Shown here piece after piece: positions 14,029 to 27,358 of a stretch of 64,000 bases of DNA (the stretch's first letter is position 1; every line of letters begins with the position of its first letter). This stretch comes from Escherichia coli. Its GTDB lineage: Bacteria; Pseudomonadota; Gammaproteobacteria; Enterobacterales; Enterobacteriaceae. The stretch is taken from the NCBI RefSeq assembly GCF_016026235.1, contig NZ_CP065613.1, one strand, 5' to 3'. A program made the translations under genes and the position numbers. The notes under the pieces are model-generated. The model had not been told where the DNA came from. It was given only the letters and a program-made list of their open reading frames with translations, and made no database searches.

Positions 14029-16262
14029 TAAATTCCTAAAGTTGTTTTCTTACGATTTTGTCTCTCTCTAACCCGCATAAATACTGGTAGCATCTGCATT
14101 CAACTGGATAAAATTACAGGGATGCAGAATGAGACACTTTATCTATCAGGACGAAAAATCACATAAATTCTGGGCGGTTGAGCAGCAGGGAAACGAGCTG
14201 CATATCAACTGGGGCAAAGTCGGCACTAACGGGCAAAGCCAGATAAAAAGTTTTGCGGATGCTGCGGCAGCGGCAAAAGCGGAGCTTAAGCTGATCGCAG
14301 AGAAAACGAAAAAAGGCTATGTGGAAAATGCTTCAGCAAACGTGCATATCCCCCCCATTACCAAAGCCACTCCTGAAGTTGAAACTTCCCCTGAGAGTAA
14401 AAACCAACGCCCCTGGCTGGCTGATGATGCGGTCATTCGGCTAACTGACGATATTAATCGATTTGCTTTTCCTCATCGCTCTCGCCCCAGAGAGATCAAT
14501 TATCTGCACAAAGATGGTCAAATATGGCAGCTCATCGCGAATAACACCAGGGCATATGATCCCGCCAACAATTACCGTTCTTATCCAGAAAACTGGCAGC
14601 AGGCTTTTGCTGAGTTACAAATGCGAGTTCAGGGTAATCAACAGACAGGGAGTGCACAATCTGATGCAGCATTGCTCTGGAGTTTCTGGAACTCTTACTC
14701 TGCAGATGAACTGGTCGATGACTTAGTCATTCGCTGTGGTCTGGAAAGTGCCGTTGAAATTGCCCTTCTCGCTCTTCAACTTAGATATAAACCAGTAAAA
14801 GGCGCAGTAACCACCATCATTCCACCTAATCACAAAGCAGAATCGCTGCCGAGTTGGCATCAACGTCTATGTCATCATCTTTCACTCACTTCAGAAGATG
14901 AGTGGCAACGCTGTGTAGATAAAGTACTCGCCGCCATTCCGACGCTATCCCCAGCACGGCAACCTTTTGCGGCGTTACTGCTCCCCGAATGCCCGGATAT
15001 TGCCAATGCTATGGCGCTACGTTATGCAGACCAAAACGTTCCGGCGATGACCTGGTTAAGTATGATGGTAAGCGATGATGTTGCCCTGGCCATCCAGGAA
15101 AAATATGGTTTCCCACCGCTATATAATGATTTCCGCAAATATCTGGCTACGTTGCTGGCAAATAATGGAATGCGTGGTGTAAGCCGGATTCTTCTCAAGC
15201 TACCTGTCGACTATCCCGTAAAATACACGGACCTTTTCACTCACATACACGCCAATGCTGAAGATCTTGTCAAATGGCTATGGAAAACGAATCACCCGGA
15301 TGCGATTCAAATTCTGATCCTCGGTGTAAATGGCAAGAAAAAGCACCTGGAATACTTAAGCAAAGCCTGCCCAAAACATCCCGCTGCGGCTATTGCCGCT
15401 TATGCTACTTTGCTGGCAATACATGAAAATAATGAGTGGCGTAAAGCGCTTGTCAAACTGATTACCGCCACGCCAGAGTTAGTATGCGAGGTCATTCCCT
15501 GGGTTAATGCTAAGGCGGCAGGCATCTTATCTGAATGTCGTCCGCTGCCAGTAGCTGAAGAATGTGAATATGCCACTGTGGATATGTTGCCGGAGCTGCT
15601 TGTCGCTCCACCGTGGGTAATAAATAAGAAAAAGAATGTCATACCCGTATTTGATTTACCGGTACTTCCCATTCCTGCCGTCACGGATATCACACCAGGA
15701 ATTACAGAGTTAATCAGTCATACTGACATATCCAGATTCAGTGAAATTGCGCAATATCAGGCATCACAGCAAACCTTATTTACCGATCTGCCACTAATTG
15801 AAAAAGAAAGCTGGGAGACATCTTTCATTCCTTTTACACCAGAACAACAAATTCTTTGGCAATTAGGTTTTAATGAATGGCTGCATTGCGAAAATGACTT
15901 ACATGAAAAAAAATATATACCGCAAAGCGCTGTTGATGCCTTGTTGCGCTTTGATTTTTCAGCACTAAAAGCTGAGTTTGCGAAATATCACAACAATGCC
16001 AACAAAAGCTGGAATCTATCTGCGCTTTGTTACTTACCGGGACAACAGGCGATCTCATTTCTCAACCAAATAATCATTGAGGAGCGATATTCAGGTGAGA
16101 AAGAGATTCTGGCGGTTTTTGGTAGTACGGCCATTCCTGCGTTTATGACCTGCTTGCAACGAGATCATCAACGCCTGTGGATATTCACCCTTTTTATTGG
16201 AGCCAGTGAACTAGCCTTACCAATGGCGCAGCGGTTACAGAAAAAAATAGCTTACAAGGATG

Positions 16263-17688
16263 TAATGCCAGTCAGTTAAGCAACTGACTGGCTCTTTTTC
16301 GGGGCTGTGGGGTATTTCCAGGGCCTCTCCTTTACCACTCTCGGGAAGGCCCTTCCCCTTCTCGTCGGTAATTTCACAAGTTGTCCCATACTTGCAAGAT
16401 CGCGCATCAGCTCCGGTATACGTCCCGGTGAAGCGCCCTGCAATGTCATCAGCATTCTCATCACCATTCCGCATGATTCTGAGAAACTCAGTTGATTCGG
16501 CCAGTAACCTTTCAGATGTTCCGCCATTTTAATCATCTGATATCTCACCAGATTATAAGCCAGTAAGACACCCTACAGCTCTTGCTCCACAAGCTCCGGC
16601 TTTTTACTTCTCAGCGTCAGCCTGCTCAGTTGCATCGTCTGTTTTATCTCCCTGTATCCCAGTTCGATTTCCCAGCGATGACTGTACAGATCCGCCATTT
16701 CTCCTCCGGGGAAGCGCATGGCGTCCGTCATCGACGTCAGCAGATGGCAGACTTTTCCTTTGCGCGTCACGGTCAGCAGGCGGGCTGTCACTTCATTTCC
16801 CAGTCCCGGCCACTTTTTTCGTGCCTGCGGGCTGGTTTTCAGCTTCACCAGATGATCGCCTTTACCCAGTTTTCTGAGCTCTTCATATTGCGCTCCCTTT
16901 CTGAGAGGTATCATCCAGTGGCGGTGTTCTCCCGCCAGGCTCCAGGCATTTAACAGTCCCAGTGAGTAATAACCTTTATCCATTAACGTCAGAGTGTTAT
17001 CGCCGGTTTGTTCTATAAGTTGCTCAGCAAGCTCATTTTCGCTGTTCTTCATCGTGCCGAAGGCTGCAGCCGTCAGCAGATGGCTGGTCAGTTCCATCTG
17101 GCAGACCATTTTGACCTGCGGGTAGAGCGCCGGGTTCCCGGCATGTGTCTGGCGGGGGAAGGCTGCATCGTTCTCTGGTGTATCCGGTGTGCGCCAGAAC
17201 ACACCATCGATGGCCAGCAGGGTCAGGCCGCACCAGTGCGGATGCGGCGTGGCGTTATGCCAGAGCTGCGCTGTTTTCGTGAACACGCGGCGGACAGCCT
17301 CACTTCCCAGGCGCTGGCGGGCCTGAATAACGGCACTGGGGGCAACGAAGGGGCGATTGCCCGGCAGCATGATGTCCAGGCGATTCACAATCTGGTGAAG
17401 AGGTTCTTTACGCTCAAGCGCCATGCCAACAATACACCAGACCATCATTTCGAGGGGAAGACGGCGCTTGCGTAGCGTTACAGTACCTGATTCGGCAAGG
17501 CAACGAGAGATGAGTTCGGGGTCGAGGTAATCCCCCAGAGAAGTCAGTGGGTTACGCAGAGAATCGTAACGGGATACCAGATCAAGAGCCTGTCCAATGT
17601 GCATAAAAAAATCCGGAAACAAGTGAGCGTTTCCGGATTCTTACACAGCCACTGGATCGGTCAACTGATCCTTAACTGATCGGCATTA
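16263..17688 (-). mobile_element. IS4 (1426 bp) flanked by a 12-bp target-site duplication cttacaaggatg
   Basis: Imperfect terminal repeats taatgccagtcagttaag / cttaactgatcggcatta; identical 12-mers at 16251-16262 and 17689-17700. Confidence 0.9.
16276..17604 (-). pseudogene. insG: IS4 transposase with an in-frame stop (TAG where Trp is expected)
   Basis: ORFs 16573..17622 and 16276..16548 are in the same frame, separated by a stop at 16573-16575 (…LVEQEL* then GVLLAYNLVRYQ…). Confidence 0.8.
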
Positions 17689-26700: not shown

Positions 26701-27358
26701 CCCGCGTCTTGAAGCTGCCCTACGTACCACCCGACGCTGGTCGCTGGCAGATTTTCATTCTCTGTTTGTTAATCATCCCTTTACCCGTCTGGTTACCCAG
26801 CGATTAATATGGGGGGTTTATCCGGCAAATGAACCGCGTTGTTTACTCAACGCCTTTCGTGTGGCCGCAGAGGGGGAGTTCTGCAATGCGCAAGATGAGC
26901 CAATTGACCTGCCTGCGGACACTCTGATTGGCATTGCCCACCCGTTAGAAATGACAGCAGAAATGCGCAGTGAATTTGCACAGCTTTTTGCCGATTACGA
27001 AATTATGCCGCCTTTTCGCCAGTTGTCGCGCCGCACGGTGCTGCTCACACCTGACGAGTCAACCAGTAACAGCCTGACTCGCTGGGAAGGTAAATCCGCT
27101 ACCGTTGGGCAACTTATGGGAATGCGATACAAAGGCTGGGAGTCAGGCTATGAGGACGCATTTGTCTATGACCTGGGTGAGTACCGGCTGGTCCTTAAGT
27201 TTTCACCCGGTTTTAACCACTACAATGTTGATAGCAAAGCGCTAATGAGCTTCCGTTCTCTTCGAGTGTACCGTGACAATAAATCCGTCACTTTTGCCGA
27301 ACTTGATGTGTTTGATTTGAGTGAGGCGTTAAGCGCACCTGACGTCATTTTCCATTAA
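23726..27358 (+). CDS. yehI: large uncharacterised protein, intact third paralog of the array
   Basis: 1210-aa uninterrupted ORF; C-terminal ~480 aa homologous to the C-termini of the two upstream genes. Confidence 0.8.
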   Translation: MDKELPWLADNAQLELKYKKGKTPLSHRNWPGEPVPVITESIIQTLGDELLQKAEKKKNIVWRYENFLLEWQSAITQAINLIGEHKPSIPARTMAALACIAQNDSQQLLDEIVQQEGLEYATDVVMARQCIARRYESDSLVVTLQYQDEDYGYGYGSATYNDFDLRLRKHLSLAEESCWQRCADKLIAALPGIPKIRRPFIALILPEKPEIANELASLESSRSSLHSKEWLKVVATDNTAVKKLERYWGLDVFSDREASYMSQKNHFGYAACAALLREQGLAAIPRLAMYAHKEDCGSLLVQINHPQVIHTLLLVADKNKPSLQRVAKYSKNFPHATLAALAELLALKEPPARPGYPIIEDKKLPAQQKARDEYWRTLLQTLMASQPQLAEEVMQWLSTQARAVLNSYLLAPPKPVIDGTDNSNLPEILVSPPWRSKKKMTAPRLDLAPLELTPQVYWQPGEQERLASTESARYFSTESLAERMEQKSGRVVLQELGFGDDVWLFLNYILPGKLDAARNSLIVQWHYYQGRVEEILNGWNSPEAQLAEQALRSGHIEALINIWENDNYSRYRPEKSVWNLYLLAQLPREMALTFWLRINEKKHLFAGEDYFLSILGLDALPGLMLAFSHRTKETFPLILNFGATELALPVARVWRRFAVQRDLARQWILHWPEHTATALIPLVFTKSSDNSEAALLALRLLYEHGHGELLQTVANRWQRKDVWPALEQLLKQGPMDIYPARIPKAPDFWHPAMWSRPRLITNNQPVTDDALEIIGEMLRFTQGGRFYSGLEQLKTFCQPQTLAAFAWDLFTAWQQAGAPAKDNWAFLALSLFGDESTARDLTTQILAWPQEGKSARAVIGLNILTLMNNDMALIQLHHVSQRAKSSSLRENAAEFLQVVAENRGLSQEELADRLVPTLGLDDPQALIFDFGPRQFTVRFDENLNPVIFDQQNVRQKSVPRLRADDDQLKAPEALARLKGLKKDATQVSKNLLPRLEAALRTTRRWSLADFHSLFVNHPFTRLVTQRLIWGVYPANEPRCLLNAFRVAAEGEFCNAQDEPIDLPADTLIGIAHPLEMTAEMRSEFAQLFADYEIMPPFRQLSRRTVLLTPDESTSNSLTRWEGKSATVGQLMGMRYKGWESGYEDAFVYDLGEYRLVLKFSPGFNHYNVDSKALMSFRSLRVYRDNKSVTFAELDVFDLSEALSAPDVIFH

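Follow-up and report, generated by a model that had tools for sequence, protein, structure and literature searches.

A recombining molR/yehI array of WGR-DUF4132 genes in Escherichia coli as the variable part of a conserved MoxR-VWA gene cassette

We analyzed a 64-kb stretch of the Escherichia coli genome (contig NZ_CP065613.1; hereafter the window, whose numbering is used throughout) that contains an array of three giant paralogous genes, namely gene 1, gene 2 and yehI, from position 14129 to the yehI stop at 27358. This array, which corresponds to the E. coli molR/yehI locus, evolves as copies of two conserved units, a 198-nt WGR-coding head and a C-terminal C-module, undergo homologous recombination. 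Its genes belong to a family that occupies the first position of a cassette with the order WGR-DUF4132, YehL, YehM, YehP, YehQ, a position that is variable and often filled by several copies. In the window, gene 1 has been inactivated by the insertion sequence (IS) IS4 and gene 2 by ISEc60, and yehI alone is intact. Taking these results together, we lean toward a reading in which the array is a recombining component of the conserved cassette, its paralogues would be adaptor or client subunits of a machine built on the MoxR-family ATPase YehL, and the machine would be SOS-controlled in E. coli.

Composition of the array and its disruption in the window

Comparison of this region with complete E. 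coli genomes gave thousands of matches at 90-99.7% identity. The gene order metG, array, yehK, yehL, yehM, yehP, yehQ is the same in strain K-12, whose yehI is 94.9% identical to that of the window at the nucleotide level. The K-12 annotation of the array consists of yehF ('PF05406 family protein'), the pseudogene yehH and yehI, and the genes and families are already catalogued and annotated. The following parts of the array were delimited in the window:

14129-16262, plus strand: gene 1 ('A', molR-like), 5' part, with the WGR head, linker, N-terminal helical region and most of the middle segment
17701-19367, plus strand: gene 1, 3' part, with the end of the middle segment, HEAT-like repeats, DUF4132 and tail
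19380-20952, plus strand: gene 2 ('C', short 1010-aa variant), 5' part, with the WGR head (19380-19577), linker and N-terminal helical region
22257-23716, plus strand: gene 2, 3' part, with HEAT-like repeats, DUF4132 and tail
23726-27358, plus strand: yehI, 1210 aa, the sole intact paralogue in the window, without a WGR head

A first-pass annotation of this DNA had already placed three paralogous giant genes after metG at 14129-27358. Its coordinates and the paralogy were right, but genes 1 and 2 are not continuous as it had assumed, since the IS4 and ISEc60 copies that split them had been overlooked.

The Pfam search that it had suggested showed that the WGR-like N-termini claimed for the first two genes are true WGR domains (PF05406; residues 6-69 in gene 1, E = 1.4e-18, and residues 7-69 in gene 2, E = 1.3e-17); yehI gave no WGR match and contains DUF4132 alone. 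DUF4132 (PF13569) was found in all three proteins (E = 6e-50 for gene 1, 2e-51 for gene 2 and 5e-47 for yehI) as near full-length matches (model positions 1-179 or 3-179 of 179), at residues 1000-1183 of rebuilt gene 1 and 734-919 of rebuilt gene 2. The proteins are laid out as a WGR head, a variable helical region, HEAT-like repeats and DUF4132. In BLASTP comparisons, genes 1 and 2 share 61% identity across the last 498 aa (the C-module) and 35% across 550 aa at the N-terminus, gene 2 and yehI are 45% identical over the C-terminal ~440 aa and 39% over the N-terminal part, and gene 1 and yehI share 31% identity over their full length. The C-terminal region of ~480 aa that had been described as common to all three genes is thus real, and the paralogy goes well beyond short motifs. 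A middle segment of ~260-290 aa is present in gene 1 and yehI and missing from gene 2. The WGR domain also occurs in eukaryotic PARP1-3; genes 1 and 2 match the Pfam WGR model at E values of 1e-17 to 1e-18, but they have no PARP catalytic domain, and their WGR is N-terminal on a helical-repeat protein.

The two insertion sequences and their target-site duplications are as follows:

16263-17688, minus strand: IS4, 1426 bp (NCBIfam transpos_IS4_1, E = 3e-83)
16251-16262 (left) and 17689-17700 (right): 12-bp target-site duplication of IS4, CTTACAAGGATG, located by exact string search and within the 11-13 bp usual for this element
20953-22246, minus strand: ISEc60 (IS4 family, IS10-like), 1294 bp, with the transposase at ~20973-22163 (NCBIfam transpos_IS4_2, 1e-107)
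20943-20952 and 22247-22256: target duplication of ISEc60, 9-10 bp, GCGAAAATC(C)

As it stands, the sequence holds real open reading frames (ORFs) of at most 716 and 537 aa in gene 1 and 543 and 482 aa in gene 2. In silico removal of each IS together with one copy of its duplication restored clean ORFs of 1266 aa (gene 1) and 1010 aa (gene 2). The joined gene 1 (14129-16262 plus 17701-19367) differs by 3 nt from the gene for WP_001215584.1 in strain BR1220, and the joined gene 2 (19380-20952 plus 22257-23716) differs by 1 nt from that of BR1220 and encodes a protein identical to WP_000860777.1. Since the rebuilt frames are this close to intact genes, both insertions must be recent. We also considered a deletion beside ISEc60 as the cause of the short gene 2 and rejected it, because the intact gene in other strains likewise encodes 1010 aa; the short form is therefore native.

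The IS4 transposase gene (16276-17604) has a premature stop at 16573-16575. An annotated IS4 with the identical site and 12-bp duplication is present in strain JNQH497, where 12 of the 1426 positions differ from the window copy (99.2% identity) as against only 3 of 3801 positions in the surrounding gene sequence. This excess divergence could mean that IS4 inserted independently in the two strains at a target that it prefers, or that its copies have undergone conversion. ISEc60 has terminal inverted repeats of 20 nt that are 95% complementary, and the window copy is 100% identical over 1294 bp to copies annotated as ISEc60. In the set of 5426 complete E. coli genomes used for all population counts, full-length ISEc60 is rare (14 genomes, one of which carries it in about 38 places). 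Its insertion in gene 2 is shared by no genome of this set, and the best-matching genomes lack it.

The boundary upstream of the array is formed by two features:

11946-13988: metG, directly upstream of the array
13998-14021, plus strand: terminator-like hairpin of metG from the terminator scan, with a 9-bp stem, six GC pairs and a following T run

This hairpin marks the 5' boundary of the transcription unit of the array. The spacer between gene 1 and the gene 2 ATG is 12 nt long (AAGGATTTAACA) and that between the gene 2 stop and yehI is 9 nt, and each includes a Shine-Dalgarno-like sequence. Given this tight spacing and the terminator upstream, gene 1, gene 2 and yehI probably form one transcription unit, and the IS4 and ISEc60 insertions would be expected to be polar on downstream array genes.

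Recombination between conserved modules

Genes 1 and 2 resemble each other most closely at their two ends:

14129-14326, plus strand: head repeat copy 1 (WGR-coding, 198 nt), 87-88% identical to 19380-19577
19303-19367, plus strand: tail repeat copy 1 (last 65 nt of gene 1), 88% identical to copy 2
23652-23716, plus strand: tail repeat copy 2 (last 65 nt of gene 2), 88% identical to copy 1

The head repeats include perfect runs of 49 and 35 nt; outside the head, the best 66-codon window of the gene 1/gene 2 alignment reaches 73.7% and the median is 54%. The first-pass annotation had given ~90% identity for the first ~200 nt, and the long near-identical head that it saw is there, at a measured identity slightly below its figure. 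Synonymous divergence (dS) between the two genes amounts to 0.60 for the head repeats and 0.46 for the tail repeats and is saturated everywhere else, which indicates conservation at the DNA level and not merely protein constraint.

The consequences can be seen in the population. The gene 1 (A)-specific body was detected in 1643 of the 5426 genomes (alleles of 83% to 100% identity), the short gene 2 (C)-specific body in 410 (nearly all at ~99%, O157:H7 among them) and a K-12-type (B) body in 4981. The E. coli genomes sampled carry two, three or four array genes in the following arrangements:

A, C, yehI: the window and BR1220; also O157:H7, in which both A and C are broken
A, B, yehI: ST131-like and other strains
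A, B, C, yehI: RM14723
yehI preceded by one gene: K-12, S88 and H1827/12, among others

These copy numbers follow from recombination between the conserved modules. A probe made of the metG end, the head and the B body was found contiguous in 3674 of the 5426 genomes (68%), which represents the two-gene junction. For head typing, we used eight near-diagnostic sites that split first-position from later-position genes. The K-12 yehF head has gene 1 states at sites 5-15 and second-gene (B) states at sites 168-204. The same A-to-B switch was observed in four other two-gene strains and in none of 17 heads from multi-copy genomes. The K-12 head tracks the A allele to nt 145, and the S88 head tracks the B allele from nt 48; these patterns differ, so at least two different crossover intervals have been used. 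The proposal that near-identical 5' ends lie behind copy-number changes and fusions is therefore supported by the comparison with K-12 and other E. coli genomes, in which both copy number and chimerism vary between strains.

Recombination driven by the head is nevertheless only part of what was found, because the C-module is a second recombination substrate that was also involved in making the K-12 gene. A 'C-type' tail is present in every second-position gene, long or short, at 93-97% similarity; the exception is the B gene of RM14723, whose distinct tail is 83-88% identical to the others. In a sliding comparison, the K-12 gene resembles B to ~nt 3000, although ~nt 1600-2000 align poorly, and it resembles C from ~nt 2500 to its end, with B and C indistinguishable within the overlap. 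The simplest reading of these alignments is that K-12 yehF/yehH ('molR') is a recombinant with an A head, a B body and a C tail. The K-12 genes yehF/yehH (b2115 and b4499) and yehI (b2118) resemble the array of the window in their location between metG and yehK/yehL, in their WGR and DUF4132 domains and in a LexA box, but K-12 has two genes instead of three, the first of them frameshifted and apparently chimeric as described, whereas the window has a separate gene A and the short variant C, both IS-broken. That K-12 molR is a pseudogene, as had been stated in the first-pass annotation, agrees with the annotation of yehH and with these frameshifts. K-12 YehF also has an Arg in place of a conserved Trp of the WGR domain (KFRAVEQQ vs KFWAVEQQ, nt 43; locus L003, 2975-3180); this change is additional to the frameshifts and K-12-specific among the heads examined.

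The four-gene array of RM14723 (locus L083, 8731-19343) consists of a frameshifted A, a B with a distinct tail, a broken C and yehI. In the search with the C-specific body, just three genomes fall into the 90-95% identity class that fits its C allele. The four-gene state thus looks rare, and it may be the ancestor from which B/C fusion genes arose. The A/B/yehI order is common to the positionally orthologous array of Klebsiella spallanzanii at 55-68% aa identity; therefore, the three-gene array either is old or has been transferred as a block.

Two broader claims about the heads were rejected. Strong ongoing homogenization within genomes is not seen: heads group by position (A with A, B with B), and their identity is 83-88% within one genome vs 92-96% between orthologues, so head exchange must be patchy and not continuous. 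Near-identical heads are also not a general property of such arrays. In Massilia arrays, heads are 73-75% and C-modules 68-73% identical, i.e., similarly diverged, and the sharp contrast between head and body is therefore specific to E. coli.

A cassette conserved across phyla

The genes downstream of the array in the window are:

27419-27739, plus strand: yehK, a small gene between the array and yehL (ORF list; annotation in related genomes)
28923-30011, plus strand: yehL, a MoxR-family AAA+ ATPase of the YehL subfamily (K-12 annotation; AAA_5 in homologous cassettes)
30022-32301, plus strand: yehM, DUF5682 (Pfam PF18934, E = 5.6e-98)
32294-33430, plus strand: yehP, a CoxE-type VWA protein (Pfam VWA_CoxE, E = 5e-72)
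33427-35430, plus strand: yehQ, a SWIM zinc-finger protein (Pfam SWIM, E = 1e-3; K-12 annotation)

The WGR-DUF4132 family comprises 2619 clusters at 50% identity (E ≤ 1e-30). Among 70 loci from named genomes, 47 have a yehL homologue flanking the family gene, mostly together with yehM, yehP and yehQ in the same order, and these cassette loci are distributed over Enterobacterales, Burkholderiales, Xanthomonadales, Geobacterales, Myxococcota, Actinobacteria and Acidobacteria. Tandem paralogues, from two to at least six, occur in 21 of the 70 loci, and some of the copies lack WGR, like yehI. The arrangement was also observed in metagenomic data: three of the four contigs retrieved have a family gene followed by an AAA_5 (MoxR) gene. 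Two of the three continue from AAA_5 through DUF5682 and VWA_CoxE to a fifth gene, and in one of these two contigs that gene has a faint SWIM match; the third ends within the gene after AAA_5. YehL represents one of seven MoxR subfamilies and has no characterized member (PMC3893208); in our literature search DUF5682 was mentioned nowhere and DUF4132 rarely.

The largest arrays were observed in Massilia species (loci L030, L035, L036, L057 and L059), with five to six or more WGR-DUF4132 paralogues in tandem and in one orientation. Some of these arrays at least end at a single yehL-yehM-yehP-yehQ set, and extra solitary copies are located elsewhere in the same genomes. In addition, a metagenome contig (L008, 6883-12213) encodes a 1776-aa homologue in which HisKA/HATPase_c is fused to WGR and DUF4132; this gene adjoins a response regulator and lies upstream of the MoxR gene. 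Such a histidine-kinase fusion hints at a signaling role for the family.

MoxR AAA+/VWA pairs such as RavA-ViaA, CbbQ-CbbO, NorQ-NorD and CoxD-CoxE resemble the cassette in having a MoxR-type ATPase gene near a VWA gene, here yehL and yehP. Unlike these chaperone pairs, the cassette also encodes DUF5682 and SWIM proteins as well as WGR-DUF4132 proteins, of which there may be one or many, and no client enzyme gene is nearby. It may also be compared with class I chelatases (BchI/BchD/BchH and CobS/CobT/CobN), in which the motor for a third subunit of ~140 kDa consists of a small AAA+ ATPase and a VWA protein, and some organisms have several large-subunit paralogues that share one motor. This likeness is one of architecture only; in sequence and fold comparisons, the DUF4132 proteins showed no resemblance to BchH or CobN.

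Two further observations concern the genes around the cassette. The yehQ ORF of the window (33403-35430) corresponds to ~667-675 aa vs 614 aa annotated in K-12, so that K-12 yehQ may be truncated or the gene ends may be annotated differently. Between yehK and yehL, the window has a tandem duplication (27774-28990) with a period of 608 nt. Each copy contains a 29-aa minus-strand ORF, MDTLTQKL(I/T)VLIAVLELLVALL(R/Q)LIDLLK (27793-27882 and 28401-28490), and an OrzO-P antitoxin RNA (Rfam RF02083; 28128-28201 with 89 bits and 28736-28811 with 100 bits). The duplication corresponds to the zorO-orzO / zorP-orzP type I toxin-antitoxin locus already known from O157:H7 (PMC3919570), which is missing in K-12, where the gap between yehK and yehL is only ~300 nt.

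SOS control and proposed function

One regulatory feature was identified immediately upstream of the array:

14103-14122, plus strand: LexA (SOS) box-like site, AACTGGATAAAATTACAGGG, with a CTG-N10-CAG core, ending 6 nt before the gene 1 ATG

All seven E. coli loci examined have this site, unchanged in sequence and position, and the LexA-regulated genes for which an SOS box is known include molR (PMC6590174). WGR and DUF4132 genes of Deinococcus, which are separate there, are members of the damage-induced DdrO radiation-response regulon (PMC8533742). According to the reading that we favor, the paralogues would be non-enzymatic scaffold proteins and, judging from gene order, may serve as alternative, interchangeable adaptor or client subunits of one shared MoxR-VWA remodeling motor. 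The WGR head would supply nucleic-acid binding, the divergent helical region would set target specificity, and DNA damage would switch the E. coli array on through LexA.

Several points weigh against this reading. An E. coli-type LexA box, the only motif scanned for, is absent from the 250 nt upstream of WGR genes in the 70 loci outside E. coli. The scanned loci include some of Beta- and Gammaproteobacteria that share this LexA motif with E. coli. We therefore rejected SOS control as a trait of the whole family, and control by damage is not a demonstrated property of the family. The possible coupling of the array proteins to YehL or YehP is proposed from gene order alone, and about one-third of the sampled loci have no yehL within 10 kb, many of them being contig ends or inner members of long arrays. 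Since yehI and some paralogues elsewhere are without WGR, nucleic-acid binding cannot be essential to every copy, and the putative binding by bacterial WGR is extrapolated from PARP and from a prediction in the literature (PMC7824862). Finally, the array is frequently pseudogenized (K-12, O157, RM14723, E92, the window, and the ST131 L1a sublineage, in which TnMB1860 with blaCTX-M-15 lies in this region; PMC9334617), which shows that it is dispensable in many lineages.

The last point raises the question of whether the array is merely decaying, functionless DNA, with conserved ends that reflect nothing but recent duplication and copy-number differences that reflect neutral loss. The pseudogenes just listed are what such decay would produce, as are the repeated hits by IS4, ISEc60, IS1 (in EC24), IS421 (in a chicken isolate), ISVsa5 (in E92; locus L087, 4701-9601) and TnMB1860, which make the molR/yehI locus a recurrent insertion site. 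However, intact alleles are common. Among intact E. coli alleles, pairwise ratios of nonsynonymous to synonymous divergence (dN/dS) are 0.10-0.30 for A and 0.12-0.20 for yehI, compared to 0.02 for the neighboring metG, so these alleles are under purifying selection, which is much weaker than that on metG. Diversifying selection was also considered and rejected, as dN/dS stays at 0.10-0.30 in all regions among E. coli alleles and gives no signal at this resolution. With a family of this size, a gene order kept across phyla and an A/B/yehI order held in common with K. spallanzanii despite the low identity, pure decay is contradicted by purifying selection and cross-phylum conservation, and we consider it quite unlikely.

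It is worth noting that several of the same features would also fit the sensor layer of a conflict (anti-phage or anti-plasmid) system, in which each WGR-HEAT-DUF4132 protein would read a different invader cue and trigger a MoxR-VWA-DUF5682-SWIM module. Tandem expansions reach at least six copies, second-position genes divide into deeply separated allelic classes whose N regions cannot be aligned, allelic dS of the array genes is 2-4 times that of metG, inactivation is frequent (PMC9334617 among the cases), the E. coli array is SOS-inducible according to the literature listing (PMC6590174), and pairs of this MoxR-vWA type are already known to form the core of predicted conflict systems (PMC7159879). 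The cassette and the MoxR-vWA 'ternary' conflict systems of Kaur, Burroughs, Iyer and Aravind (2020; PMC7159879) have in common a MoxR-vWA core and large variable non-motor components, but the defining third components of those systems (VMAP, iSTAND, FtsH and beta-propeller) and their effector domains were not among the domains detected in the cassette, and that study mentions no WGR, SWIM, YehL or DUF4132. Moreover, no effector-like domain (nuclease, toxin or protease) was detected in the array proteins or in YehM, YehP and YehQ. The hidden Markov models of PADLOC-DB 2.0 gave no match for gene 1, yehI, yehK, yehM, yehP or yehQ and only a spurious one for yehL (E = 0.068), and assignment to a known defense system was rejected accordingly. 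Pervasive positive selection is not evident from the dN/dS values, and the locus occupies a fixed core position in nearly all E. coli. Carriage on mobile elements was likewise rejected: the family has no match among 50,697 phage records and matches only 31 of 72,556 plasmids, with hardly any true plasmid matches among them. A conflict system is therefore an unlikely explanation.

We find it highly improbable that these genes are MolR-type transcription regulators of molybdate metabolism, as the historical annotation has it. CoxD and CoxE mature a Mo-Cu centre, and the VWA domain of YehP is of the CoxE type, which may be counted for this interpretation. A 1990 genetic study, as cited in PMC8533742, named molR as needed for molybdate utilization, and WGR has been called the DNA-binding domain of 'MolR-like TFs' (TF, transcription factor; PMC7824862). 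Nevertheless, the K-12 gene is frameshifted and apparently chimeric, so a K-12 phenotype is hard to attribute to it, and the label 'molybdate regulator', which rests on a strain whose gene is a pseudogene, is weakly supported. The products are helical-repeat proteins of 1000-1266 aa in which domain searches detected no classical DNA-binding or ligand domain besides WGR. In every phylum sampled, their neighbors are MoxR, VWA, DUF5682 and SWIM genes and no molybdenum genes.

Returning to the reading of the paralogues as adaptor or client subunits of a YehL machine, the placement in a cassette supplies concrete partners for them, namely MoxR ATPase, VWA, DUF5682 and SWIM proteins, and it explains the locus as a recurrent landing and deletion site in clinical lineages, e.g., ST131 with TnMB1860. 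It also bears on a gene that has figured for decades in lists of the E. coli SOS regulon with no function assigned to it. K-12 is a poor model here, because its copy is frameshifted and apparently a three-way chimera; in about 30% of E. coli strains, gene A is a gene of its own, and arrays of two or of three genes are found intact. Genes 1 and 2 of this window deserve annotation as IS-disrupted pseudogenes. A bolder extension, which we regard as rather doubtful, is that the cassette is a widespread five-component machine in which the diversified WGR-HEAT-DUF4132 proteins of tandem arrays would be exchangeable detectors of nucleic acid that is damaged or foreign, all of them feeding a single MoxR-VWA motor. 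If this were true, it would be a new type of DNA-damage-response or immunity system, one that K-12 would have hidden because its copy is a frameshifted recombinant.

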